Source: Natronospirales bacterium
GTDB lineage: Bacteria; Pseudomonadota; Gammaproteobacteria; Natronospirales; REEB76
Assembly (NCBI GenBank): GCA_018971605.1
Contig: JAGXAL010000002.1
Span: forward strand, 1 to 59,449
Length of the DNA stretch: 59,449 nt
Direction of reading: 5' to 3'
Made by a program: the position numbers and the translations under genes. Below are positions 9,814 through 40,275 of this stretch, one piece after another (position 1 is the first letter of the stretch; each line of letters opens with the position of its first letter). The notes under the pieces were generated by a model that was not told the DNA's origin, did not search any database, and was given only the letters and a program-made list of their open reading frames with translations.

Positions 9814-10488
9814 TCAACCCGACCCGGCAAGGCGCGCCAGCGCGGCGCGGTCGCGGATCACGATGCGTTCGCGCCCGAGCTCGATCCAGTGGCGGCCTTC
9901 AAAGCTGCGCAGCAGCCGTGAGACGATCTCGCGCACCGAGCCGAGCTCGTCGGCCAGCGCCTGGTGGGTGACCTGCAGCGCATCCTCGCCGCGCGCCAGC
10001 AGCCTGGCCGCGAGCCGTTGATCGAGGCGCTGGAAGACCACGGCCTCGACCACCTGCATGAGCGTGCCCAGGCGCTCGCCGAATTCGCCGAATACGTAGT
10101 GGCGGAATTCGGGGCTTTCATCGAGCAGCGCCAGAAACGTGGCCGGCGGCAGCAACACCATGACCAGCGGCTGTTCGGCAAGCGCCGTGGCGGTGTAGCT
10201 GATCTTGCCGAGCAGACAGGAGGCGCTCAGCAGGCAACTCTCTCCGCGTTTGACGCGGTAGAGCTCGACCTCGCGTCCGTTGGCGCCGCGCTGGAACACG
10301 CGCAGGCTGCCGTCAAGGATCAACGGCAGGCCGCGGCAGGGAGCATGTTCATCAAACACGACTTTGCCGGCCGGATGGGCGTAGTACTGGGCTTCGGCCG
10401 CGACGCGCCGCTGCAGCGCGGGCGGCAGGCGCGCAAACGTCGGGAAGCGCTCTTCCAGCGTGTGCAGGGCGGAATCGGACAACGGCAT
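9814..10488 (-). CDS. Crp/Fnr family transcriptional regulator (Dnr/NnrR-like, no FNR Cys cluster)
   Basis: Has a cNMP-binding-like beta-roll and a C-terminal [27 protein letters not shown], carrying the E--SR motif. There is no N-terminal CxxCxxxxxC. I chose ATG 10488 over the TTG at 10506. Confidence 0.85.
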
Positions 10489-10525
10489 ACGCAGCTCCCG
10501 TAGCAATTATAAGGCGCGAGGCTTG

Positions 10526-24409: not shown

Positions 24410-26701
24410 TCAGGCGTGCGCGAGGCTCTGGTAAATCTCCTCCTCCTGCGCGAAGTGCAGCCGCAGTATGGCGTCGAGCGCATACAGCAGCCGCTGCAAA
24501 TCACGCAGGGCTTCGGCATCCGGGCCTGGCGCGGGCAGCCGTGTGACGAGGCTGCTGAATTGTCGATGCAGACGGAAAATTTCCCGGTGGCTGCGGCTCA
24601 TCGCCGCCATCGGGTCATCGCCGCCCAGCAGCGCGGCCACCGCCGGATAGACCTGGCGGTCGTCGGCGCGTTCGTGCGGCAACAACTGCTGCTGCAGCAG
24701 CGTATCGAGTTCCTTGAGCACCGCCGGCACCTCGGTGCGTGGCAAGCCCGGCAGGCGATCGGCCACCGTGGTCAGCCGGTCGAGCACCGGCGCGAGCAGG
24801 GCGTGCTCTTGGCGCAGGCGCTCGGATTCCTCCGGGGTCAGGTTGTGCTGGCTGGCGCGCAAGGGATGGATGCGCAAGGCGCGCAGCGCATTGAGAATCA
24901 CCGCCACGTCGATAATCTCCTGCAGGATGGCGCCGTACAGCGGCGGCAGGTAACCGGCGGCGGCCACCAGCATGGCCGCGAGCGACAAGCCCATGCCGGC
25001 GAACACGCTCTGCAGCGCGATGCGGCGTGTGGCCCGCGCGATGTGCAGCGCCTCAGCCAGCCGGTCGAGACGATCCACCAGCAGCACGATGCCGGCGGCC
25101 TCCGCGGAGGCGGTGGCGCCGCGTGCGCCCATGGCCACGCCGACGCTGGCGGCGGCGAGCGCCGGGGCATCGTTCACCCCGTCGCCCACCATCACGGTCG
25201 GTCCCGCACTGCGCGCTGCCTTGAGCATTTCCAGTTTATGCGCCGGCGTTTGCTCGGCGAGCACTTCGTCCACGCCCAATCCGCTGCCGATAGCTTCGGC
25301 GACGTCGCGGCGGTCGCCGGTCAGCATCACGATTCGGCGGAAGCCCGCACGCCGCAGCAGGCGCAAGGCCCGCGGGGTTTCCATGCGCAGCTGGTCGGCG
25401 AGCAGCAGCACGCCGGCAAATTTTCCGTCAATGGCCACGAGCACGGTCGACGTGCCTTCGGTGCCGGCACGCTCCAGCAGCTCGCGCACCGCTGCCGGCA
25501 CCGGCGCGATGCGTGCGAGATAGCCGAGCGAACCCGCGACCACGCGTTTGCCGTCAACCGTGCCGCGCATGCCGGCGCCCACGGTTTCCACCACGTCTTT
25601 GGGAATGCTGAGCGCCAATCCGCGCGCCTGCGCCGCGCGCACTACCGCAGCGGCGATCACATGATGCGACATCTGTTCCAGCGAAGCCGCGGTCGCCAGC
25701 AGTTCATTCTCCCCGCCGGCGGCCGTGCTCTTGATCTCCACTAGGCGCGCCTCGCCGCCGGTGAGTGTGCCGGTCTTGTCGAAGAACAGGGTGCGCGCGC
25801 CCGCCAGGGTTTCCAGCGCGGCGCCGCCCTTGACCAGAATTCCGCGCTTGGCGCAGCGCGACATTCCGGAAACCATGGCCACCGGTACGGCCAGAATCAG
25901 CGGGCAGGGCGTGGCCACCACCACCACTGCCAAAGCCCGCAGCGCTTCGCCGCTCACGGCCCAGGCGATAGCGGCCAGCACCAGAGTTACCGGGATGAAC
26001 CACAGCGCGTAGCGGTCGGCCAGCCGCGAGGCGGGCGCGCGCGAACGCTGCGCCGCTTCCACCAGCTTCACGATGCCGGCAAAAGTGCTGTCGGCCGCCG
26101 TCGCGGAGGCCAGCAGGTCAAAAGAATCCGCGGCATTCAGCGTGCCGCTGTGCAGCCACGCGCCCCGCTCATAGGCCACCGGCACGGATTCGCCGGTGAG
26201 CGCCGCTTCATCCAGGACTGCGCGTGCCGCAATCAGAGTCCCGTCCACCGGCACCACTTCGCCGTGCCTTACGAGCAGGCGATCACCGGCGTTGACTGCG
26301 GCGAGGGGTACAGCAATGAGCTGGCCGTTGCTGTAACGACTGACAGTACGCGGGACCCTGGCGAGCAGGGCCGACATCTCGCGGCCGGCGCGGCGTTCCG
26401 CAAAACTCTCCAGCAGCCGGCCGCTCGCCAGCATCACCGCGATCACCGCGGCCGTCAGATTCTGGTGCAAGGCGATCGCCGCCACGATTGAAATCAGCGC
26501 CAGCAGGTCCACGCCCAGTTCGCGCCGCCACAGCGCCGCCAGCATTCCCTGCAGGAGCGACGCGACCGCCGGCACCGCGGCCGCCGCCCATACCCAGCCG
26601 GCCGTATCGCGAAGACCCGCAAGGCCAAGCACTGCACCCACGAGCAGACCGGCCGTACAGGCGGCGAACACGGCGATGTCGATGTGCCAGCGGATTTTCA
26701 T
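24410..26701 (-). CDS. P1B-type heavy-metal ATPase, P1B-5-like (TPCP motif, no N-terminal metal-binding domain, C-terminal hemerythrin-like domain)
   Basis: Contains DKTGTLT, TGD, GDGVNDAP, and the TM motif VVATPCPLILAVP. The last ~150 aa carry H/E-rich hemerythrin-type helices (HREIFRLHRQF ... LRLHFAQEEE). Start taken at MKIRWH (ATG 26701). Confidence 0.85.
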   Translation of the reverse strand: MKIRWHIDIAVFAACTAGLLVGAVLGLAGLRDTAGWVWAAAAVPAVASLLQGMLAALWRRELGVDLLALISIVAAIALHQNLTAAVIAVMLASGRLLESFAERRAGREMSALLARVPRTVSRYSNGQLIAVPLAAVNAGDRLLVRHGEVVPVDGTLIAARAVLDEAALTGESVPVAYERGAWLHSGTLNAADSFDLLASATAADSTFAGIVKLVEAAQRSRAPASRLADRYALWFIPVTLVLAAIAWAVSGEALRALAVVVVATPCPLILAVPVAMVSGMSRCAKRGILVKGGAALETLAGARTLFFDKTGTLTGGEARLVEIKSTAAGGENELLATAASLEQMSHHVIAAAVVRAAQARGLALSIPKDVVETVGAGMRGTVDGKRVVAGSLGYLARIAPVPAAVRELLERAGTEGTSTVLVAIDGKFAGVLLLADQLRMETPRALRLLRRAGFRRIVMLTGDRRDVAEAIGSGLGVDEVLAEQTPAHKLEMLKAARSAGPTVMVGDGVNDAPALAAASVGVAMGARGATASAEAAGIVLLVDRLDRLAEALHIARATRRIALQSVFAGMGLSLAAMLVAAAGYLPPLYGAILQEIIDVAVILNALRALRIHPLRASQHNLTPEESERLRQEHALLAPVLDRLTTVADRLPGLPRTEVPAVLKELDTLLQQQLLPHERADDRQVYPAVAALLGGDDPMAAMSRSHREIFRLHRQFSSLVTRLPAPGPDAEALRDLQRLLYALDAILRLHFAQEEEIYQSLAHA

Positions 26702-26807
26702 GGGGTCACTGCCACCTGCCTTGCCAGGCAGCCGGGTTTTACTGTCGGCCGGTGCGACCGGGAATGCATGACGGTGCAGCACCTTAGGCCCTGACGAGCG
26801 TGAAAAA

Positions 26808-26821
26808 ATTGATCCATGTCA
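26808..26821. promoter_or_regulatory. Crp/Fnr-family box (TTGATCCATGTCAA) positioned to serve both divergent promoters
   Basis: TAGTTT (26844-26849, plus strand) and TAAGGT (26780-26785, minus-strand reading) each lie exactly 32 bp from the box centre. Confidence 0.65.
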
Positions 26822-26996
26822 AGGCCCGGCCCGACGGACCTGCGTAGTTTATACGGCGTTCCGCTGTGCTGATCGTCGTAATCCGCTGGCTGGATTCACG
26901 CGGTGATCAAGCCTTGGGCACGCCTTTTGAGGCGGGCCAGTGGTAGCGGCAGGGATGCGTAAATGGATACCGCTCTATGGCGCAACAGGAGGAGGC

Positions 26997-27581
26997 ATGC
27001 ACACGTTGATGGACCAACCCTTGGATAAAGTATCGCGATTTTTGCACCTGGGCCTCGCGGTCTTCGGTGTCGCGGCCTGGCTGATCGGTTCCGGCTGGAT
27101 CGGCGCCGGCGCCGGCGATTACGATCACGCCGATCATTTCTGGTACCTCCAGCACCGCTGGATCGGTATCACCTTCACCGCATTCCTGCTGGCGCGCGTG
27201 CTCTGGGGATTCGTCGGGCCCGCGAGTGCGCGTTTCGTGAATTGGGTGCCCTGGAGCTGGGCGCGCTTCAAGCTGGTCATCGAGGATGTGCAGGGCCTGC
27301 TCAGATTCCGCATACCCGACCGGTCGAGCCACCAGGGGCTGTCCGGCCTGGTGCAGTCGCTGGGCTTGCTGGTGTTTCTGTGGCTGGGAGTGAGCGGCCT
27401 CATGAATGCAGTCGCGATCACGCCCGGCGTGAAACTCACCGGCTGGATGCGCGAGGTCAAGGAGCTGCACGAAATCGGCGACGTGCTGGTGCCCGCGTAT
27501 CTCATCCTGCACGTCGGCGGCGCGTTATTGCACAGCCTGACCGGCAGGCCGGTGTGGAAGAAGATGGTGTTTCTTGAATGA
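26997..27581 (+). CDS. cytochrome b561 / Ni-hydrogenase b-type cytochrome family membrane protein
   Basis: Four predicted TM helices with conserved His residues (HLGLAVF, HQGLSG, HEIGDVLVPAYLILHVGGALLH). RBS GGAGGAGG precedes ATG 26997. Confidence 0.7.
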   Translation: MHTLMDQPLDKVSRFLHLGLAVFGVAAWLIGSGWIGAGAGDYDHADHFWYLQHRWIGITFTAFLLARVLWGFVGPASARFVNWVPWSWARFKLVIEDVQGLLRFRIPDRSSHQGLSGLVQSLGLLVFLWLGVSGLMNAVAITPGVKLTGWMREVKELHEIGDVLVPAYLILHVGGALLHSLTGRPVWKKMVFLE

Positions 27582-27630
27582 GCCGACTTTTTCAACAGGC
27601 GAACAGAGGTCTGACCTCAAGGAGATGGTT

Positions 27631-28251
27631 ATGAGAACGCGTATTTCCAGTGGATTCCTGTTGGCGGCGATGCTGGGCATCATCGCCTTAGCAGTGTCGG
27701 TGACGGCAACGGCCGGCGGCCATGCCGCATTGGATAGTTCACAGGCAGCAGGCGGGGCGCCGCCGGCGACGGAGGCAAGTATGAAATTTCCAGTCCCGGA
27801 TTCATTGACCGCGGAACATGCGGCCTTGCACGCCGAACTCGAGCAGATTATCCATACGGGCGGCAAGACCGGTCAGGCCGCACAAGCCGTGGCGGCGGTC
27901 CTGCAACCGCACTTCGTGAAGGAGGAAAAGTACGCGCTGCCGCCGCTGGCCCTGTTGGGTGATTTGGCGAGCGGCAATGTTTCGCCGGGGATGGCCGCGA
28001 TCCTGCCCTTGACGGACGAGCTTAAACGCAGCTTGCCGGAGATGCTGGCCGAACATCAGCAAATCCTCGCGGCGTTGCATCACCTCAGCGCGGTCGCCAA
28101 GGCGGAGCACAAGCCGGACGCCGAGCGCTTTGCGCACGAATTGATCCACCATGCGCAGACCGAAGAGCAGATCACCTATCCCGCGGCCATTCTCGTCGGC
28201 GAGTACGTGAAGCTGAGATTGAGCGCGGGAAACACCTCATCCGGCAGCTAA
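27631..28251 (+). CDS. secreted hemerythrin-like (HHE cation-binding) domain protein
   Basis: Has a signal peptide (MRTRISSGFLLAAMLGIIALAVSVTATA). H/E ligand-like motifs include AEHAALHAELE, HFVKEE, LAEHQQIL and HELIHHAQTEE. RBS AAGGAG at 27619-27624. Confidence 0.6.
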   Translation: MRTRISSGFLLAAMLGIIALAVSVTATAGGHAALDSSQAAGGAPPATEASMKFPVPDSLTAEHAALHAELEQIIHTGGKTGQAAQAVAAVLQPHFVKEEKYALPPLALLGDLASGNVSPGMAAILPLTDELKRSLPEMLAEHQQILAALHHLSAVAKAEHKPDAERFAHELIHHAQTEEQITYPAAILVGEYVKLRLSAGNTSSGS

Positions 28252-30185: not shown

Positions 30186-30199
30186 TTGACCTAGATCAA
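30186..30199 (+). promoter_or_regulatory. Crp/Fnr(Dnr/NnrR)-type box (TTGACCTAGATCAA), promoter of nor cassette 1
   Basis: TAATAT at 30223-30228 is 33 bp from the box centre. The box lies 67.5 nt upstream of the norC GTG at 30260. Confidence 0.7.
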
Positions 30200-30259: not shown

Positions 30260-30850
30260 GTGAGTATCCAGGAACCCGGCTTCTGGCGCGCGGGGGCGAT
30301 CAGCACCACCGCCGTCATGATCGTGGTGCTGATCTTCCTCTCGATCGACAGCATCCAGGTGATTTCGGCGGGCGGCGCCAACGTGCCTAGGTACGACGTC
30401 ATCAATCAGCAGATCGGCTACCGCTACGACTGGACCCGGCGCATGGATGTCCCGGTCATCGGCGGTCCCGAGCCCTTGTTCGGCACGGTTTACAGCGAGA
30501 CCGGGGCGCAAGCCCTCATCGCCAAGGGCAAGCTCGTGATCCAGAGTCGCGCCTGCATGGATTGCCACACCTTCTTCGGCAACGGCGCCTATTACGGTCC
30601 GGACCTTACCAAGTCCTGGCTGGATCCCGCTTGGTCACAGATCTGGATGCCCGCGACCGGCGCCAAGACCCGCGAGGACGCCATGGTGATGTTCCTCATG
30701 AATCCGGATCGTTACCCCACCTGGACACGCCAAATGCCCAACCTGCAGCTCACGCGCGAGGAAGCCCAGGCGGCGGTGGCTTATCTGAAATGGATGGCGT
30801 CGGTCGATACCAACGGATTCCCAGCCAACTTCGGGATGAAACAGCCATGA
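30260..30850 (+). CDS. norC: nitric-oxide reductase cytochrome c subunit NorC-like (with ~40-aa insertion after the TM anchor)
   Basis: N-terminal TM helix and heme motif CMDCH. Contains GNGAYYGPDL and MPNL...YLKWM..VDTNGFP, as in NorC. GTG 30260 is preceded by RBS GGGAGG at 30246-30251. The paralog starts at the equivalent GTG. Confidence 0.8.
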   Translation: MSIQEPGFWRAGAISTTAVMIVVLIFLSIDSIQVISAGGANVPRYDVINQQIGYRYDWTRRMDVPVIGGPEPLFGTVYSETGAQALIAKGKLVIQSRACMDCHTFFGNGAYYGPDLTKSWLDPAWSQIWMPATGAKTREDAMVMFLMNPDRYPTWTRQMPNLQLTREEAQAAVAYLKWMASVDTNGFPANFGMKQP

Positions 30851-32262
30851 TTTCCGGAGGCCAGACCATGTACCGCTCGCAGAAACTCGCGCTGCACTAC
30901 TTCGCTGCGGCCGTCATCTTTTTCGGCGTGATGACCCTCTTTGGATTGTTGTCGGCGCTGTATTACCTCTACCCGTCGATGCTGTTCCATACCTTTGATT
31001 TCCAGATGTCGAAAATCATGCACATCGACACCCTGGTGATCTGGCTGCTCATGGGCATGCTGGGCGCGGTGTATTGGTTCCTGCCGAAGGAGCTGGGGCG
31101 CGAGGTCAAAGGCATCTGGCTCGCGGAAATCCTGTTTTGGGTGTTTTGCGCGGCGGTGGTGGTGGTGGCGCTGGTGTTCCTGTTCGTGCAGTACGGTTCG
31201 AGCGACCAATTCAGCATGTGGTTCATCAATCAGGGCCGCAAGTACGTGGAAGCGCCGCGCTGGGCGGCCATCGGCATCGTGATCGTGATGCTGGTGTTCG
31301 CCTACAACGTCATCGGCACCGCCATCGCCACCCGCAGGATGACCGGCATCCTCTGGGTGCTGTGCATCGACCTGGTGCCGTTGTGCCTGGTGTACCTCGA
31401 CGCCTTCCCGCAGTTCACCAACATGTCGGTGGACTTGTACTGGTGGTGGTGGCTGGTGCACATGTGGGTGGAGGGCACTTGGGAGGTGCTGATCGGCTGC
31501 ATCATGGCGTGGATGCTCATGGAAGTGGCCGGCACTTCGCGGCGCATCGTCGAAACCTGGCTGTACATCGAAGTTATGCTGGTGCTGGGCGCGGGCATTC
31601 TCGGGCTTGGCCACCATTATTTCTGGATCGGCACGCCGCAGTACTGGCTCAGTATCGGCGGGTTTTTCTCGGCCCTGGAACCCTTGCCGCTGCTCGGTAT
31701 GGTGGTGCACGCGATTTACGATGCCGGCACGCATCACCTGAAGACCACCAACCAGCCGGGGTTCTACTGGATCACGGCGGAGGCCTTCGGCAATTTCATC
31801 GGCGCCGGGGTGTGGGGCTTCATGATGACCCTGCCGCAGATCAACCTGTTCTCGCACGGCACCCAGTGGACCGTGTCGCACGGGCACTTCGCCTTCTGGG
31901 GTGCGTACGCCTGCGGCGTGATCGCGGTGCTGTACGTGGCCAAGCAGAAGACCTCGGGTATCGATTACCTTTCGGGGCGCGCCTGGAAGTGGGGTTTCGG
32001 GCTGCTGAATTTCGGCATGCTCGGCATGGTGATGGGTTTGCTGCTCGCGGGCATGGCGCAGGCTTTCTACGGGCGCGCTATGGGCGGCTCGACGCTCATG
32101 GCCTTCACCCAGTCTTCCGAAAATCCCTGGTTCGTGTCCGGCATGTGGGCACGCACGGGCTTCGGCGTGGTGTTTGCGCTCGGCTACATCGTGCTGGTGT
32201 ATGACCTGGTGACGGCGACGCGGCGCATGCCGAAAGCGGTGGCGCCTCCGGAGCCCGCATGA
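30847..32262 (+). CDS. norB: nitric-oxide reductase large subunit NorB (cNOR type)
   Basis: All cNOR ligand contexts are present: MHIDTLVIWLL, VHMWVEGTWE, GLGHHYFWIG and VSHGHFAFWG. ATG 30847 overlaps the norC TGA. Confidence 0.9.
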   Translation: MISGGQTMYRSQKLALHYFAAAVIFFGVMTLFGLLSALYYLYPSMLFHTFDFQMSKIMHIDTLVIWLLMGMLGAVYWFLPKELGREVKGIWLAEILFWVFCAAVVVVALVFLFVQYGSSDQFSMWFINQGRKYVEAPRWAAIGIVIVMLVFAYNVIGTAIATRRMTGILWVLCIDLVPLCLVYLDAFPQFTNMSVDLYWWWWLVHMWVEGTWEVLIGCIMAWMLMEVAGTSRRIVETWLYIEVMLVLGAGILGLGHHYFWIGTPQYWLSIGGFFSALEPLPLLGMVVHAIYDAGTHHLKTTNQPGFYWITAEAFGNFIGAGVWGFMMTLPQINLFSHGTQWTVSHGHFAFWGAYACGVIAVLYVAKQKTSGIDYLSGRAWKWGFGLLNFGMLGMVMGLLLAGMAQAFYGRAMGGSTLMAFTQSSENPWFVSGMWARTGFGVVFALGYIVLVYDLVTATRRMPKAVAPPEPA

Positions 32263-32558
32263 CGCCCGCGGCGCTTTTGTACAGCGCGGGTTTGATGGGC
32301 TGCCTGGCGCTCGCGGGCGGCGGCTACGGCGGCCTGTATACATGGAGCCGGATGCGGCTCAATGCCGGATTGCGTTACACGGCATTCGTCTGCTACGGCC
32401 TGGTCCTGTTGTTCGCGGTGCTGATTGCCGCAAGCACGCCGCTGGCGCCCGTATGGAAGACCCTGGTAGTGGCGAGTGCGCTGATCTACGCCTTGGTGCC
32501 GCCGCTCACGTGGCGCTTTCTGGTCAAAATGCACGAGCCGGGAGAGCAACACCCATGA
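32259..32558 (+). CDS. small 3-TM membrane protein, translationally coupled to norB (unknown family)
   Basis: 99 aa. Its ATG overlaps the norB stop (ATGA). The conserved C-terminus VPPLTWRFLVKMHEPGEQH is shared with its paralog at 35882..36178. Confidence 0.6.
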   Translation: MTPAALLYSAGLMGCLALAGGGYGGLYTWSRMRLNAGLRYTAFVCYGLVLLFAVLIAASTPLAPVWKTLVVASALIYALVPPLTWRFLVKMHEPGEQHP

Positions 32559-32890
32559 TTGCAAACATCCTCAACACGCTGGTGGGACTGGCGCTGGCCT
32601 GCCTGACGGTGCTCAAGCCCTTGTGGATCGAGCGTCAGTATCTGCCGCTGCTGGTGTTCGCGGCGGTGATTTTCCTGCTGGCCTGGTGGGCGCGGCGCAG
32701 CGATCCAGCGCGCTGGTTCAGCTCTGTGAACATGGTGATGGCGGTGTTGCTTGCAATCCTCGCGCTCCTGCCGCTGGCGACGCTGCCGAACCTGTCGTTC
32801 TGGGGGGCATTCTGGATCGGTGTCATCGTGCCGGTGGTGGCGCTGTGGGCCGCGTTGTATCGCCCCGAGTCGCGGGTGGCGGCGGAGTAA
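32555..32890 (+). CDS. small 4-TM membrane protein (unknown family)
   Basis: 111 aa with an ATGA overlap with the preceding gene. Strongly conserved against the paralog at 36175..36510 (MI.NILNT.VGL ... RPLWIERQ ... DPARWFS ... VPVVALWAALY.PES). Confidence 0.6.
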   Translation: MIANILNTLVGLALACLTVLKPLWIERQYLPLLVFAAVIFLLAWWARRSDPARWFSSVNMVMAVLLAILALLPLATLPNLSFWGAFWIGVIVPVVALWAALYRPESRVAAE

Positions 32891-32943: not shown

Positions 32944-33261
32944 ATGAAAAAGATTTATGCGGTGACAGGGCTCGCAGTGATGGCATCGCTGGCTTTGCCG
33001 GCGGCCTGGTCTGCAGATCCGGGAGCCGGCCAGAAGCTTTTTCAAACGACATGTATCGCCTGCCATGGACAGAACGGCGTGGGCATCGCGCCCATGTATC
33101 CGAATCTCGCCGGCCAGAAAATGGAGTACATCGTGGCCCAGCTCAAAGCCTTCCGCGACGGCCAGCGCGTGAATCCGATCATGAGCCCCATGGCCAAGGG
33201 CTTGTCGGATACCGATATCGCGAATTTGGCCGAGTATCTGAGCACATTGAAGCCGCAGTGA
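32944..33261 (+). CDS. monoheme class I cytochrome c (c-551/c-552-like), periplasmic
   Basis: Has a signal peptide, heme motif CIACHG, and a distal Met context ([13 protein letters not shown]). RBS GAGGAG at 32929-32934. Confidence 0.8.
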   Translation: MKKIYAVTGLAVMASLALPAAWSADPGAGQKLFQTTCIACHGQNGVGIAPMYPNLAGQKMEYIVAQLKAFRDGQRVNPIMSPMAKGLSDTDIANLAEYLSTLKPQ

Positions 33262-33870
33262 CCTGCGCAGCCGGCCTGTGGCGGGACGGCTCTCCAATCA
33301 GAACTGCAAAGTCACTGCAAATCGGATTTGTGTGATGGCTCCGGTGCTGATTGCACCGGGGGGTGCACCGTGAGAGTCCGGACGGGCGCAAGCGCTTGAG
33401 TCCGCATGCCGATTCCAAAAGTCGTCAACCGCTCCGCAGCCGTGATGTTGAGGTTGCTGCACGCCGTGACGTCCGCCCAAGTGTCGGCCTGCGCTTCAGT
33501 CAGGCGCGGGCATGCGTTCACGCGGTGGTGAGCTGCGTGTAACGGCTTGATGCCGCAGTCATTGCCCAACTTGGATACCCGCCGTGCGTGAGCTGCTGAC
33601 CAGGTAAACGGGGTCACATTGCCTGGATTGCCAATGAAAATAAGCGCGTGCCGAATGCTGCGTGTACCGCGCATGTTTGTCTTGGGGGCAAACTGGTGCT
33701 TTAATAATCCTCGGCAGCGGCTGGCAAAGGGAAATCCGGTCGACCATCGATGATCGCGACACCAGCGGCCAAGATGCACTTTGTTACGCGGATTGTTGCC
33801 TGATCGCGCGTTGGGTTCATGGCCAACATTTTTTTGACGCACGCAATCTCATCTGACGGGGAGCCACAGC

Positions 33871-34467
33871 GTGGATATCCAGGAACCGGGATTTTGGCGG
33901 GCCGGGGCGATCAGCACCACGGCGGTAATGATCGTGGTGCTGATATTCCTTTCCATCAACAGCTCGCAGGCGATCGCGGTCGGTGGCAGTCACGTGCCGG
34001 ATTACAGCGTGATCAACCGGCAGATCGGTTACCGTTATGATTGGACGCGTCGCGAGGACGTGCCGGTGATCGGCGGGCCGCAGCCGCTGTTCGGCAAGGT
34101 GTACAACGAAGGCCAGGCCACGGCGCTCATGAACCGGGCCAAGCTCGTCATTCAGAGCCGCAACTGCATCAATTGCCATACCTTTTTCGGTAACGGCGCC
34201 TATTACGGCCCGGACCTTACCAAGTCCTGGCTGGACCCGGCTTGGCATCAGATTTTCATGCCGATGACCGGCGCCAAGACCCAGGAAGAGGCGATGGTGA
34301 TGTTCCTGATGGACCCGCCCAAGTACCCCACTTGGGATCGCCGGATGCCCAATCTGCATCTTAGCGAGCAGGATGCGCAAGCCGTGGTCGCCTATCTCAA
34401 GTGGATGTCGGCCGTGGATACCAATGGCTTTCCCGCGAACTTTGGCATGCAGGGGGAGAAACCGTGA
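33871..34467 (+). CDS. norC: NorC-like cytochrome c subunit, paralog 2
   Basis: GTG start, TM anchor, heme motif CINCH, and the same insertion and C-terminal YLKWM..VDTNGFPANFGM as copy 1. Confidence 0.8.
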   Translation: MDIQEPGFWRAGAISTTAVMIVVLIFLSINSSQAIAVGGSHVPDYSVINRQIGYRYDWTRREDVPVIGGPQPLFGKVYNEGQATALMNRAKLVIQSRNCINCHTFFGNGAYYGPDLTKSWLDPAWHQIFMPMTGAKTQEEAMVMFLMDPPKYPTWDRRMPNLHLSEQDAQAVVAYLKWMSAVDTNGFPANFGMQGEKP

Positions 34468-35885
34468 GCACCGCAGAGATCGGCTTGTACCGTTCGCAGA
34501 AACTCGCACTGCGCTATTTCACCGCCGCCGTCATTTTGTTCGGTGTCATGATTCTGTTCGGGTTCCTGTCCTCGCTCTATTACCTGCATCCTTCGATGCT
34601 GTTCAAGGTCTTCGACTTCAACACCTCGAAGATGCTGCACATTGACACCCTGGTGATCTGGCTGCTGATGGCGCTCATGGGTTCGATTTACTGGTTCCTG
34701 CCCAAGGAAATCGGCGGCGAGATTGCCGGCATCCGCTTCGCGGAGATCATGTTCTGGGCGTTCTGCGTGATCGTGGCGATTGTCGCCGTGGTCTTTATCT
34801 TCGTGCAGTACGGCCACGCGGATGAATTCAGTCTGTGGTTCATCAATCAGGGACGCAAGTACCTGGAGGCGCCGCGCTGGGCTTCGCTCGGTATCGTGGC
34901 GGTGCTGCTGACCTTCTCCTATAACGTGATCGGAAGTGCCATCAAACGGCGCAAGATGACCGGAATACTCTGGGTGCTGTGCCTGGACCTGATCCCGCTG
35001 GTGCTGGTTTACACCGACGCCTTCGCCGCGCAGACCAACATGTCGGTGGATCTCTACTGGTGGTGGTGGATCGTGCACATGTGGGTGGAGAGCACCTGGG
35101 AGGTGCTGATCGGCTGCATCATGGCGATGATGCTGATGGAAATTGCCGGCACTTCGCGGCGCATCGTCGAAACCTGGCTATACATCGAGGTCATGCTGGT
35201 GCTGGGCGCCGGCATTCTCGGCCTGGGCCATCATTACTTCTGGATCGGTACCCCGGAGTACTGGCTGAGCATCGGTGGTTTCTTCTCGGCACTCGAACCT
35301 TTGCCGCTCCTGGGCATGGTGGTGCATGCAATTTATGACGCCGGCAGCCACCACCTGAAAAACACCAATACCCCCGCCTTCTGGTGGATTACTGCCGAGG
35401 CCTTCGGTAATTTCATCGGGGCCGGAGTGTGGGGCTTCATGATGACGCTGCCGCAGATCAATCTGTTCTCGCACGGCACACAGTGGACGGTGTCGCACGG
35501 GCACTTCGCCTTCTACGGCGCGTATGTCTGTGGCGTGATCGCGGTGTTTTATCTCGCACGGCAGAAGTACACCGGCATTGAGCACCTGCACGGCAAGGGC
35601 TGGTGGTGGGGGTTTGGACTCCTGAATTTCGGTATGCTCGGCATGGTGATGGCGCTGCTGCTCGCGGGTATGGCGCAAGCCTTCTACGGGCGCGCCATCG
35701 GCGGCTCGACGCTCATGGCCTTCACCGACGCCTCGCAAAATGCCTGGTTCGTGGCCGGCATGTGGGCGCGTACCGGCTTCGGCGTGGTGTTCGCGCTCGG
35801 CTACGTGGCGCTGGTCTGGGATCTGCTGGCGATCCGCAAGCGCCTGCCGCAAGCCGCTGCCGTGTCGTCGCCGGAGCCGGCATGA
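34464..35885 (+). CDS. norB: NorB (cNOR large subunit), paralog 2
   Basis: GTG 34464 overlaps the norC2 TGA (GTGA). RBS GGGGGAG at 34452-34458. All His ligands are conserved. The active-site segment reads VHMWVESTWE, where copy 1 has G instead of S. Confidence 0.9.
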   Translation: MSTAEIGLYRSQKLALRYFTAAVILFGVMILFGFLSSLYYLHPSMLFKVFDFNTSKMLHIDTLVIWLLMALMGSIYWFLPKEIGGEIAGIRFAEIMFWAFCVIVAIVAVVFIFVQYGHADEFSLWFINQGRKYLEAPRWASLGIVAVLLTFSYNVIGSAIKRRKMTGILWVLCLDLIPLVLVYTDAFAAQTNMSVDLYWWWWIVHMWVESTWEVLIGCIMAMMLMEIAGTSRRIVETWLYIEVMLVLGAGILGLGHHYFWIGTPEYWLSIGGFFSALEPLPLLGMVVHAIYDAGSHHLKNTNTPAFWWITAEAFGNFIGAGVWGFMMTLPQINLFSHGTQWTVSHGHFAFYGAYVCGVIAVFYLARQKYTGIEHLHGKGWWWGFGLLNFGMLGMVMALLLAGMAQAFYGRAIGGSTLMAFTDASQNAWFVAGMWARTGFGVVFALGYVALVWDLLAIRKRLPQAAAVSSPEPA

Positions 35886-36178
35886 GTCCCGAGGCGGTAC
35901 TCTATAGCGCGGGCCTCTGTGGCCTGCTGACCTTGGCGGCGTTCGGCTACGGGGCGTTCTACGTGGGCAGCAAGATGCTCGCCGTTAAGCTGATTTATGG
36001 CGCGCATGGTTGCTACTTCATTGTGGCGGCGCTCGCGATTCTGATCTTTCTGTCCACCCCGTTGGGGATCGGTTGGAAGATCCTAATCGTTGCGAGCGCC
36101 GTGGTGTACGCCGCGGTGCCGCCAGTGACGTGGCGTTTTCTCGTGAAGCTGCATGCGCCAGAGGAGCAGCACTCATGA
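35882..36178 (+). CDS. small 3-TM membrane protein, paralog of 32259..32558
   Basis: ATGA overlap with norB2. The C-terminus is VPPVTWRFLVKLHAPEEQH. Confidence 0.6.
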   Translation: MSPEAVLYSAGLCGLLTLAAFGYGAFYVGSKMLAVKLIYGAHGCYFIVAALAILIFLSTPLGIGWKILIVASAVVYAAVPPVTWRFLVKLHAPEEQHS

Positions 36179-36510
36179 TTCCGAATATTCTCAATACCTG
36201 TGTCGGGCTGTTTCTGTCCTACCTGGTCATCATCCGGCCGCTATGGATCGAAAGACAGTTTTTCCCGCTGTTGGTATTCGCCGCCGTGATGTTCCTGCTG
36301 GCGCTCTGGGCACGGCGTACGGATCCGGCGCGCTGGTTCAGCACCATGAATATGGTGCTCGCGGTATTGCTTGGGGTCTTGGCGCTTTTGCCGCTCCCTC
36401 TGTTGCCGAATCTCACTTTCTGGGGCGGGTTCTGGGTCGGCATTCTGGTGCCGGTGGTGGCGCTGTGGGCGGCTCTCTACAAGCCCGAGTCACCGGCGGT
36501 GGAACCATGA
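36175..36510 (+). CDS. small 4-TM membrane protein, paralog of 32555..32890
   Basis: ATGA overlap with the preceding gene. High similarity to the copy 1 protein along its whole length. Confidence 0.6.
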   Translation: MIPNILNTCVGLFLSYLVIIRPLWIERQFFPLLVFAAVMFLLALWARRTDPARWFSTMNMVLAVLLGVLALLPLPLLPNLTFWGGFWVGILVPVVALWAALYKPESPAVEP

Positions 36511-36574: not shown

Positions 36575-36931
36575 GTGAAAAAAATTCTTGTGTTGCTGGC
36601 GGCAGTGTTGTCTCTGGCCTCGGTGCTCCCGGCGGCGCGCGCCGCTGATCCCGCCGCCGGCGCGAAGCTCTACAACGCGACCTGCGTCGCCTGCCATGGG
36701 CAGGATGGCATATCGGTGGCCCCGATTTACCCGAACTTGGCGGGCCAGAAGGAACAGTATCTGGTCACCCAGCTCAAGGCGTTCCGCGACGGTACCCGCG
36801 TCAACCCCATCATGAACCCAATGGCCAAGGGCTTGTCGGATACCGACATCGCCAATCTGGCTTTGTATCTGAGCAGCCTGGGCGCAGCCGTTCCGCCGCC
36901 TGCCGCATCGTCAGGTCAAAGCCAGAGATAA
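36575..36931 (+). CDS. monoheme class I cytochrome c, paralog 2 (with Ala/Pro-rich C-terminal extension)
   Basis: GTG 36575 follows RBS AGGAGG at 36561-36566. Has a signal peptide, CVACHG and [13 protein letters not shown]. Confidence 0.8.
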
Positions 36932-37813: not shown

Positions 37814-37989
37814 GACGGGACGGGCGCTTCCGCCTCTGAACAGCAAGCCTGCGGGCTCCGCACTTGATGGAAATCATGGACACGGGCAGGCGGCATGCGC
37901 AGCATGCGGCCTTGGTCGCACTGGTAGGCTGGAAGACATTTTTTGCGAAATGCCTGGCGAGCAGAACCGCTGCAAGAGGAACAAGCATC

Positions 37990-40275
37990 ATGGCACTGGT
38001 CACTTACGCGGGATTTCCGCGTATCGGTCTGAAACGCGAGCTTAAGCGCGCGCTGGAAGCCTATTGGCGTGGCGAGATCGCGGCGGACGCGCTGCAGGAC
38101 ACGGCGCGTGCGCTGCGTGCACGCCATTGGAAACTGGGCCGCGATGCCGGCGCGGACATCGTGCCGTGCAACGATTTCAGCCTCTACGACCATGTGCTGG
38201 ATACCGCGGTGCTGTTCGATGCCATTCCCGAGCGTTATCGGCCGGTGTTTGCCAACAACCGGCTGGACGGCTATTTCGCCATGGCCCGCGGGCACAAGCG
38301 CGGCGGCTACGACTTGCACGCGTTGGAAATGACCAAGTGGTTCGACACCAACTACCACTACATCGTGCCCGAGCTGCACGCGGGACAGCGTTTCGCCCTG
38401 CGGGGTGACAAGCCCGTTGCGGAATTTCTCGAGGCCAGGGCGCTGGGCATCTACGCCCGCCCGGTCGTGTTGGGGCCGGTATCGTTTCTGCTGCTGTCCA
38501 AGACCTCCGATCGCAGCCAACCGCTCACGTTGCTTGGCGCTCTGCTGCCGGCTTACACGGCGCTGTTGCAGCGCCTCGCGGCCGCCGGCGCCGATTGGGT
38601 GCAACTGGACGAACCCTGTCTGGTGCTCGACCTCGATGCGGCCGCCCAGGCGGCGCTGCGTCAGGCTTACGCTGCCTTGGCGGCATCCAGCGGTCTCAAG
38701 ATTTTGCTGGCCAGTTATTTCGGCGCGCTCGGCGGCAATCTCGATTTGGCGGTGCAGTTGCCGGTGAACGGCCTGCATGTTGACCTGGTACGCGCACCCG
38801 AACAACTGGATGCGGTACTGGAGGCCTTGTCGCCTGCGCGGGTACTCAGCGCCGGCGTCATCGACGGACGCAACATCTGGCGCAGCCGTCCCGATCAGGT
38901 GTTGCCGCGGCTACAGCGCGCCCAAGCCCGGCTGGGTGCCGAACGTCTGTGGCTGGCGCCGTCCTGCTCCCTGCTGCACGTGCCTATCGACGTGCAGGCC
39001 GAGACCGCGCTGGAACCGGCGCGCCGCGCCGCAATGGCGTTCGCGCGCCAGAAAATCGAGGAGCTGCGCCTTTATGCGGACGCCCTGGCTGGTGGTGCGC
39101 AGGCCGCCGCGTCACTGGCGGCGCAGCAACAGCGCCTGGGTGCACAGGCACAGCTGCCGGGAGTGGTTGATCCCGAAGTGCGCGCGCGGCTGCGCAAACT
39201 CGGCCCGCAGGCGGCACGGCGCCGCTCCGATTATGCCCAGCGCCGCGCGGCGCAGGCCAAAGCGCTGCCGCTGCCGCCGCTGCCGACCACCACCATCGGC
39301 TCGTTCCCGCAAACCGACGAGTTGCGCCAGGCGCGCGCCGCGCAGCGTGCCGGCAAGCTTTCCGCTTCCGACTACGGCCAGCGCATGCGCGCTGAGATCG
39401 AGCGCGTGGTGCGCTTCCAGGAAAACATCGGGCTGGACGTGCTGGTGCACGGCGAACCCGAACGCAACGACATGGTGGAGTATTTCGGCGAACAACTCGA
39501 CGGTTATCTGTTCACCCAGCACGGCTGGGTGCAAAGTTACGGCTCGCGCTGCGTCAAGCCGCCGGTGATCTGGGGCGACATCGCGCGGCGCGCACCCATG
39601 ACCGTCGCCTGGGCGCGCTATGCGCAATCGCTCACCCAGAAACCCGTGAAGGGCATGCTCACCGGCCCGGTCACCATGCTGCAGTGGTCGTTCGTGCGCG
39701 ATGATTTGCCGCGCGCCACGGTCTGCCGGCAGCTCGCGCTGGCGCTGCGCGACGAAGTGCGGGATCTGGAAGCCGCGGGTATCCGCGTGATCCAGATCGA
39801 CGAACCGGCGTTTCGCGAAGGCCTGCCGCTGCGGCGCGCGGACTGGGCCGCGTACCTGGCCTGGGCAGTGGAGTGCTTCCGCATCGCCACGGGCGGCGCC
39901 GGCGACAGCACCCAGATCCACTCGCACATGTGTTACTCGGAATTCAACGACATCATCGAAGCCGTGGCGGCCATGGATGCCGACGTGATTTCCATCGAGA
40001 GCAGCCGTTCGCGCATGCAACTGCTCGAGGCCTTCGTGCGCTTCCGTTATCCGAACGGCATCGGACCCGGGGTTTATGACATTCACTCGCCGCGGGTGCC
40101 GGAAGGCGGCGAGATGCTCGAGCTCCTGCACAAGGCGCTGGGCGTGCTGCAGCCGCAGCAGCTGTGGGTCAATCCCGATTGCGGCCTGAAAACCCGCAAC
40201 TGGTCCGAGGTGGAGCCGGCGCTGCGGCACATGGTGGCCAGCGCGCAAAAACTGCGCAGCGAGCTGCGGCTTTGA
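37990..40275 (+). CDS. metE: cobalamin-independent methionine synthase
   Basis: 761 aa. The N-terminus GFPRIGLKRELKRALEAYW and the C-terminal Zn-site contexts (HMCYSEF, NPDCGLKTR) match MetE. Start taken at MALVTY (ATG 37990). Confidence 0.9.
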   Translation: MALVTYAGFPRIGLKRELKRALEAYWRGEIAADALQDTARALRARHWKLGRDAGADIVPCNDFSLYDHVLDTAVLFDAIPERYRPVFANNRLDGYFAMARGHKRGGYDLHALEMTKWFDTNYHYIVPELHAGQRFALRGDKPVAEFLEARALGIYARPVVLGPVSFLLLSKTSDRSQPLTLLGALLPAYTALLQRLAAAGADWVQLDEPCLVLDLDAAAQAALRQAYAALAASSGLKILLASYFGALGGNLDLAVQLPVNGLHVDLVRAPEQLDAVLEALSPARVLSAGVIDGRNIWRSRPDQVLPRLQRAQARLGAERLWLAPSCSLLHVPIDVQAETALEPARRAAMAFARQKIEELRLYADALAGGAQAAASLAAQQQRLGAQAQLPGVVDPEVRARLRKLGPQAARRRSDYAQRRAAQAKALPLPPLPTTTIGSFPQTDELRQARAAQRAGKLSASDYGQRMRAEIERVVRFQENIGLDVLVHGEPERNDMVEYFGEQLDGYLFTQHGWVQSYGSRCVKPPVIWGDIARRAPMTVAWARYAQSLTQKPVKGMLTGPVTMLQWSFVRDDLPRATVCRQLALALRDEVRDLEAAGIRVIQIDEPAFREGLPLRRADWAAYLAWAVECFRIATGGAGDSTQIHSHMCYSEFNDIIEAVAAMDADVISIESSRSRMQLLEAFVRFRYPNGIGPGVYDIHSPRVPEGGEMLELLHKALGVLQPQQLWVNPDCGLKTRNWSEVEPALRHMVASAQKLRSELRL

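Follow-up and report, generated by a model that had tools for sequence, protein, structure and literature searches.

Whether the two small membrane proteins encoded directly after norB belong to the nitric oxide (NO) reductase is the question raised by a DNA stretch of 59,449 nucleotides from a Natronospirales bacterium (contig JAGXAL010000002.1). This whole stretch, 59 kb in length, is referred to as the window. It carries two tandem five-gene cassettes on the plus strand, each in the order norC-norB-orf3-orf4-soluble cytochrome c. The encoded enzyme is a cytochrome c-dependent NO reductase (cNOR). Such enzymes make the greenhouse gas nitrous oxide, and their subunit make-up and the route of FeB insertion are active research questions. 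A first-pass annotation of the window had put forward both small proteins as candidate novel subunits or assembly factors of NO reductase (NOR). The proposal holds for orf4, which represents an unrecognised family found exclusively with NOR. It does not hold for orf3, which is by profile comparison a homologue of NorH, an already described third subunit, and not new. The new component is orf4, and it is the only one of the two small proteins that is a candidate novelty.

The nor cassettes and their enzyme type

The two cassettes contain the following genes (TM, transmembrane).

30260..30850, plus strand: norC of cassette 1, long-form, membrane-anchored mono-haem c subunit (Pfam Cytochrom_C and NorB_cytochrome_c-like)
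30847..32262, plus strand: norB of cassette 1, cNOR catalytic subunit of the NorQD-independent type (Pfam COX1; 90% identical to NorB of locus L010)
32259..32558, plus strand: orf3 of cassette 1, norH homologue encoding 99 amino acids with three TM helices, NorH family by profile
32555..32890, plus strand: orf4 of cassette 1, encoding 111 amino acids with four TM helices, SPW-like, candidate fourth subunit or assembly factor
32944..33261, plus strand: soluble mono-haem cytochrome c of cassette 1, with signal peptide (Pfam Cytochrom_C and Cytochrome_CBB3)
33871..34467, plus strand: norC of cassette 2, product 53% identical to Thermus NorC and matching 3o0r_C with an E value of 9e-14
34464..35885, plus strand: norB of cassette 2, product 52.6% identical to Thermus NorB and matching 3o0r_B with an E value of 1.6e-89
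35882..36178, plus strand: orf3' of cassette 2, norH homologue encoding 98 amino acids, 29% identical to Thermus thermophilus NorH
36175..36510, plus strand: orf4' of cassette 2, encoding 111 amino acids, 75% identical to orf4
36575..36931, plus strand: soluble cytochrome c of cassette 2, with a GTG start at 36575 after GAGGAGG

The norC gene of cassette 1 starts with GTG at 30260 and is preceded by GGGGAGG. The norC/norB junctions overlap by 4 nt, with ATGA at 30847 in cassette 1 and GTGA at 34464 in cassette 2. The norB/orf3 and orf3/orf4 junctions are 4-nt ATGA overlaps in both cassettes. The coordinates of orf3 and orf4, their paralogues, their conserved motifs and the chained start and stop codons had all been read correctly in the first-pass annotation, and these statements hold for both cassettes. 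The cytochrome c that closes each cassette is likely the electron donor, with no specific tie to orf4.

Between the cassettes, NorC is 77% identical, NorB 76–78%, orf3 58% and the cytochrome c 76%. The identity of orf4 is 75% over 106 amino acids and 71% when aligned globally. The ratio of nonsynonymous to synonymous substitution rates (dN/dS, Nei-Gojobori) is 0.135 for norC, 0.215 for norB, 0.287 for orf3, 0.194 for orf4 and 0.220 for the cytochrome c gene. The ratios of orf3 and orf4 therefore mark both as protein-coding genes under purifying selection, not as chance open reading frames (ORFs) in GC-rich DNA. An earlier impression by eye, that orf4 is conserved about as well as the catalytic subunit, is confirmed by the identities. 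orf4 is also better kept between the cassettes than the accepted subunit NorH.

No recent duplication underlies the two cassettes. Cassette 1 NorB is nearer to its counterparts in L010 (90% identity) and L011 (85%) than to NorB of cassette 2 (78%), and in the NorB tree the cassette 2 protein branches outside the group formed by cassette 1 NorB, L010 and L011. The closest NorB to the window is that of L010, from a metagenome-assembled genome (MAG) of the Gammaproteobacteria.

The matches of the cassette 2 proteins to 3o0r_B and 3o0r_C of P. aeruginosa identify NorB as a genuine cNOR catalytic subunit and NorC as the long form. A search of 72,556 plasmids gives NorB of Thermus thermophilus pTHTHE1601 as the top match, with 52.6% identity, and NorB proteins of the norCBQD type are only 36–40% identical to the window NorB. 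The absence of NorQ and NorD had been pointed out at first reading. Indeed, tblastn with Paracoccus NorQ and NorD as queries finds neither in the window, and none is found in 80 related loci, matches being confined to two norCBQD control loci.

When window NorB is aligned to P. aeruginosa (Pa) NorB with HMMER, the K-analogue positions Pa I244 and Pa F290 are occupied by Glu and His, respectively. The motif gvDrE at the NorD docking surface reads gtSrR, replacing the acidic D/E pair by S/R. In cNORs without NorQD, the K-analogue residues are hydrophilic and the acidic D/E pair at the NorD docking surface is absent (PMC12067857). Judged by these sequence features, window NorB belongs to the NorQD-less cNOR clade. 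Genes of the nir and nos types are absent from the window.

orf3 as a NorH homologue

orf3' aligns with Thermus thermophilus NorH over its full length of 98 amino acids (29% identity, E value of 1e-6). In hhalign, 40 orf3-type sequences match the NorH proteins of Thermus, Hydrogenothermaceae and Anaerolineae with a probability of 99.0% and an E value of 5.9e-18. Four residues, Y23, W66, P81 and H92, are invariant in a nearly gapless alignment of 23 NorH sequences drawn from all groups described below. In the Thermus locus, norH encodes a 98-residue "hypothetical protein" and overlaps the end of norB (L009:5421-5717). The AlphaFold2 (AF2) model of orf3' consists of three long helices, with a predicted local distance difference test score (pLDDT) of 88.7, in agreement with the three TM helices first assigned to orf3.

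The product of norH is the third subunit of Thermus thermophilus cNOR according to the passages of PMC12067857 and PMC5748679 that refer to Bricio et al. 2014, and the former cites co-purification of NorH with NorC and NorB for Thermus only. In Pfam and NCBIfam scans orf3 yields only noise. Searches of NorH against the PDB give no relevant sequence-profile match (one spurious match has an E value of 0.018) and no Foldseek match at E ≤ 0.001. CyoD compares with the NorH model in Foldseek at an E value of 2.6 and a probability of 0.12. A profile search places at least 1035 protein clusters in the NorH family. No informative name occurs among 120 listed, and the clusters are unnamed or "hypothetical" and without a Pfam domain among the matches listed.

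The occurrence of the genes was surveyed by searching a NorB alignment against one genome per GTDB species. This yielded 80 loci, whose NorB ranges from 90% down to 51% identity, and these loci were searched with hidden Markov models for NorB, NorH and orf4. A NorH homologue lies beside norB or norC in all 77 adequately covered genome loci of the NorQD-less clade. The hosts include iron oxidisers (Mariprofundus, Gallionellaceae, Sideroxydans), methanotrophs (Methylomonas) and Thiobacillaceae. NorH has been described as restricted to a small subset of thermophiles (PMC12067857), and the literature places it only in Thermus and Aquificales. Its wide occurrence in mesophilic Proteobacteria contradicts the restriction to thermophiles stated in PMC12067857.

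On one metagenome contig (L008:6690-6710), one extra base, inserted 16 nt ahead of the norB stop, creates a NorB-NorH ORF of 562 amino acids. The near-identical L007 has normal, overlapping norB and norH genes. The fusion joins the cytoplasmic C terminus of NorB to the predicted periplasmic N terminus of NorH, an implausible topology. It was rejected as evidence and is probably an assembly or strain indel.

Occurrence, fold and possible role of orf4

In a neighbour-joining tree, the NorB sequences form three monophyletic groups, designated A, T and B.

Group A: norC-norB-norH-orf4 in 29 of 29 loci with enough downstream DNA, 3 more being cut by contig ends; NorB at least 59% identical to the window; hosts are Gamma-, Beta- and Alphaproteobacteria, Binatus/Binataceae, Cybelea/Baltobacteraceae and Anaerolineae, all MAGs
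Group T: norC-norB-norH without orf4 in 4 loci (two of Thermus, Hydrogenothermaceae and one of Anaerolineae); NorB about 52–56% identical
Group B: norH-norC-norB without orf4 in 44 of 44 loci with upstream DNA; NorB about 51–56% identical; hosts are Gallionellaceae, Sideroxydans, Ferrigenium, Thiobacillaceae, Methylomonas, Methylococcaceae, Mariprofundus (L085) and others

The NorB sequences accompanied by orf4 constitute one monophyletic group of 40, whose members come from Gamma-, Beta- and Alphaproteobacteria and from Binatota-like, Eremiobacterota-like and Anaerolineae MAGs. Canonical norCBQD loci contain neither NorH nor orf4. The co-occurrence of the small proteins with this NorB clade, raised in the first-pass annotation, is complete, in the adequately covered loci, for NorH and, within group A, for orf4; it breaks down for orf4 in groups T and B. 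In group B (L042-L089), norH overlaps the start of norC, as in L085:5003-7401 of Mariprofundus sp. EBB-1, where nirK follows the norH-norC-norB cluster. The NorH tail of this group has a conserved Cys near the invariant His (W-x-L-C-x-G-T-H).

Looked up from the orf4 side, from close to very distant relatives, the gene directly follows one of about 98–103 codons in 7 of 7 cases, and a COX1-family gene precedes the latter wherever the contig extends far enough. A metagenome scan with a narrower orf4 alignment as query returned 20 orf4 loci. norH is immediately upstream in all 16 that have upstream sequence, and one locus is cut by a contig end. The remaining three hold only the 3' half of orf4, with no start and no nor genes. 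Among 41 distinct loci, 31 share the 4-nt overlap between norH and orf4, the genes in the others being spaced by at most 8 nt or overlapping more. All intact orf4 copies examined, from more than 50 loci in several phyla, immediately follow norB-norH.

The three 3' fragments (L114:1327-1575, L115:2980-3162 and L116:563-760) cover TM3-TM4, come from soil metagenomes and are nearly identical to P0090. The one in L114 adjoins a gene for an ABC-transporter permease. All three appear to be what is left of a nor cluster after deletion. The MAGs of the orf4 clade derive from soil, groundwater, bioreactors and similar habitats, and this occurrence in MAGs only may explain why orf4 went unnoticed.

The AF2 model of orf4 is a four-helix bundle (pLDDT 92.3, predicted template modelling score 0.83), as expected from the four TM helices assigned initially. 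The helices comprise residues 2–20 (continuing as 22–27), 29–46, 53–71 and 78–101 and are arranged as two 2-TM repeats. Invariant residues of the family are G11, A46, R47, D50, W54, L66, W83, G89 and W98, and the family motif is WARRSDxxxW. The loop that carries the motif and both termini are predicted to be cytoplasmic by the positive-inside rule. The best Foldseek match of orf4 in the PDB has an E value of 0.78, and a profile search of the PDB returned no sequence match.

Profile searches, which led from orf3 to NorH, place orf4 in no curated family. No Pfam or NCBIfam match exceeds the threshold, scans of the window giving only noise, and the sole relation found is a sub-threshold one to PF03779 (SPW). 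Full-length matches with E ≤ 0.01, covering profile positions 2–93 of 93, are present in 18 of 56 orf4-family members. The best scores 28.8 bits (E value of 1.8e-6), and no member reaches the gathering threshold of 31.5 bits. The window proteins orf4 and orf4' themselves have no PF03779 match at E ≤ 1. Reciprocally, the orf4 profile finds the confirmed SPW proteins P0211, P0216, P0220 and P0224 with E values of 3e-6 to 3e-4. These reciprocal matches, which lie below curated thresholds, suggest a shared origin of orf4 and the SPW domain. In terms of sequence, orf4 is best classed as an SPW-like offshoot and not as a member of the curated SPW family. True SPW genes are stand-alone, occur in unrelated neighbourhoods and are not found beside respiratory genes; the link to NOR is therefore specific to the orf4 offshoot.

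The orf4 family comprises 94 clusters at 90% identity, all annotated as "hypothetical". Among 1.84 billion proteins it has 128 representatives at E ≤ 1e-3, many of them fragments. Apparent orf4 fusion proteins (P0161, P0185, P0188 and others) proved to be frameshifted Arg-rich junk. The family appears to be undescribed, since nothing on it was found in the literature on NorH, the SPW repeat, or cNOR and NorQD.

orf4 was gained once, its loss is not observed in any of the several phyla, and its translational coupling is conserved; this pattern points to a protein that acts together with the enzyme at a constant ratio. On this evidence orf4 is probably, though not assuredly, a fourth subunit, integral to the membrane, or an assembly partner dedicated to the NorCBH-type enzyme. 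The functional unit would be a four-gene module, norC-norB-norH-orf4, present twice in tandem in the window. orf4 would be a remote descendant of the SPW-domain family that joined the operon once, where one NorB subclade begins, and was retained from then on. The overlap of its start with the norH stop would couple translation and set a fixed ratio of orf4 to NorB and NorH. The protein may then pack against NorB and NorH, with its invariant A-R-R-S-D...W loop predicted to face the cytoplasm, as does the invariant His of the NorH C-terminal tail.

Several points weigh against a subunit or assembly role. The sister groups T and B have no orf4, which means that it is not essential to this enzyme type. 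The tree behind the grouping is a neighbour-joining tree without support values, rooted on only two NorB sequences of the norCBQD type. The 32 genome loci of the orf4 clade (L010-L041) include no cultured isolate. Four-helix bundles such as the predicted one are generic, and nothing informative in the PDB matches it; no natural fusion of orf4 to a NOR component was found either. Finally, any contact of orf4 with NorB, NorC or NorH, and any effect on stability, proton or iron access, or activity, is inferred, as is its topology.

An alternative is that orf4, alone or with NorH, replaces the NorQD maturation system, acting non-stoichiometrically in membrane delivery of Fe(II) to FeB or as an aid to haem insertion. 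Neither the window nor any related locus has NorQD, and the R47/D50 loop of orf4 and H92 of NorH are predicted to be cytoplasmic, where the K-analogue channel opens. This channel is the proposed route of chaperone-free iron entry (PMC12067857). Thermus cNOR made in E. coli, to which NorH is apparently not bound, contains only 0.12 FeB per enzyme (PMC12067857), which leaves room for a role of the small proteins in FeB loading. However, native Thermus cNOR acquires full FeB (PMC12067857), and it does so without any orf4. Groups T and B likewise lack both NorQD and orf4. orf4 is therefore not a general replacement for NorQD but at most a clade-specific addition, and the substitution first proposed for the pair fails for this member of it. 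In addition, the orf4 invariants include no conserved His/Cys/Met cluster and no metal-binding motif, and none of the 72,556 plasmids, Thermus megaplasmids included, carries an orf4 homologue. NorQD replacement is thus an unlikely function of orf4. The small proteins may still contribute to FeB loading, NorH more than orf4.

Less likely still, orf4 could be a co-transcribed passenger: a generic membrane protein of the SPW type that serves in housekeeping or stress and has nothing to do with NO reduction. The remote relation to SPW proteins, whose true members stand alone in varied contexts, would fit such a role. Some lineages should have lost or relocated a passenger, whereas the intact copies, in more than 50 loci, all sit immediately after norB-norH, mostly with the 4-nt overlap, and the only copies away from nor genes are the three 3' fragments without a start.

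The weakest candidate, in which orf4 docks or tethers the downstream soluble cytochrome c to NOR much as CcoQ stabilises CcoP on cbb3 oxidase, was rejected as very improbable: a gene for a cytochrome c with signal peptide does directly follow orf4 in the window and its closest relatives, even overlapping the orf4 stop in L094, but the two genes are not co-distributed, as about 16 orf4 loci (L005-L008, L026, L028, L030-L041) have no nearby cytochrome c and about 10 group B loci have a homologous cytochrome c directly after norB without orf4, and the prediction puts the conserved loop of orf4 in the cytoplasm and not in the periplasm.

A fourth subunit or assembly partner remains the preferred reading of orf4. 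Should it be a subunit, it ought to be included when such enzymes are expressed heterologously or studied structurally, and two "hypothetical protein" families could be named in annotation pipelines. A bolder version, which we advance tentatively and would not bet on, is that NorC, NorB, NorH and orf4 form a cytochrome c-dependent NO reductase of four subunits, widespread among uncultured bacteria of soil, groundwater and wastewater. In this enzyme the invariant cytoplasmic Arg/Asp loop of orf4 and the invariant His of NorH would together shape the opening of the K-analogue channel towards the cytoplasm. If so, the small subunits would have a part in supplying protons or in loading FeB without chaperones, and a first functional context would be gained for any SPW-type protein. 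The basic picture of NO reduction chemistry would stay unchanged.

Genomic surroundings and comparison with known systems

A putative regulatory site precedes the first cassette.

30186..30199, no strand assigned: FNR/DNR-type palindrome TTGACCTAGATCAA, with one mismatch to TTGAT-N4-ATCAA, about 67 bp upstream of the norC start of cassette 1

Of 38 group A loci, 9 have an FNR/DNR-type box (one mismatch or none) ahead of norC, compared with 1.7% of background windows. Such boxes before norC fit anaerobic or NO-responsive expression. The 600-bp spacer upstream of cassette 2 (33262..33870) has no FNR-type box, unlike that of cassette 1. A promoter and terminator scan gave no sigma-70 match, and terminator-like matches are no commoner than in shuffled sequences.

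Across the window, the FNR/DNR-type palindrome TTGAYCYRGRTCAA has 30 sites at up to two mismatches, against 8.7 expected. Sites of 14 nt are located at 2786, 2830, 6675, 9769, 11009, 21611, 21650, 22248, 26809 and 30186. They are intergenic and lie upstream of genes for Hsp20, a universal stress protein, an old-yellow-enzyme-type oxidoreductase, a DksA-like protein, flavodoxin, a CBS protein, a P-type ATPase, cytochrome b561 and norC of cassette 1. A regulator gene of the Crp/Fnr family is present at 9814..10506 (minus strand). Taken together, the sites and the regulator resemble a regulon for hypoxia/NO stress.

The DNA shortly before the nor cassettes encodes a P-type ATPase that bears a hemerythrin domain at its C terminus (24410..26782, minus strand). 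A cytochrome b561-type gene follows at 26940..27581 (plus strand) and is overlapped by a hemerythrin-domain gene at 27574..28251 (plus strand). The FNR-type box at 26809 is situated between the divergent P-type ATPase and cytochrome b561 genes. On the other side, metE, for cobalamin-independent methionine synthase, adjoins the nor module (37864..40275). It does so as well in a Rhodanobacteraceae MAG (L001:7766-10060), where nosZ-nosR-apbE is just upstream. The shared metE neighbour suggests that the window and L001 have a related genomic backbone.

Small operon-encoded membrane proteins are familiar from haem-copper oxidases. CcoQ of cbb3, CyoD or subunit IV of bo3 and aa3, and subunit IIa of ba3 are short hydrophobic polypeptides that attach to the periphery of subunit I and stabilise the complex. 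orf4 and NorH share only this concept with them and have no significant sequence or fold similarity to any of these subunits.

NorE and NorF, encoded in the norCBQDEF cluster of Paracoccus, are small membrane proteins that are not needed for catalysis as such. NorE is COX3-like and has about five TM helices. Both go with NorQD-dependent enzymes, whereas the window cassettes have no NorQD. orf3 and orf4 have no COX3 match in Pfam or NCBIfam at E ≤ 1, and neither do 56 relatives of orf4. The opinion that neither small protein is NorE or NorH was consequently sound with respect to NorE and mistaken with respect to NorH, which the hhalign match identifies as orf3. In the two norCBQD plasmid loci (L090 and L096), no norEF genes are annotated.

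Like SPW proteins (PF03779), orf4 has four TM helices in two 2-TM repeats and a length within the range of about 110–140 amino acids. Unlike them, the orf4 family has WARRSDxxxW in place of the SPW motif, and its genes are found only after norB-norH, not standing alone.

The window enzyme resembles Thermus NorCBH in several respects. NorB and NorC are 52.6% and 53% identical, respectively, norQD is missing, and the hydrophilic K-analogue residues are the same. NorH is of the same size and is encoded directly after norB, which it overlaps. The two systems also display clear differences. The NorH tail reads PPxTWR[FY]L in the window clade and PQGMWWVV in Thermus. The hosts of the window type are mesophilic Proteobacteria-type MAGs and not thermophiles, and the module is present twice in tandem in the window. 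Above all, the window operon contains a fourth gene, orf4, which is absent in Thermus.

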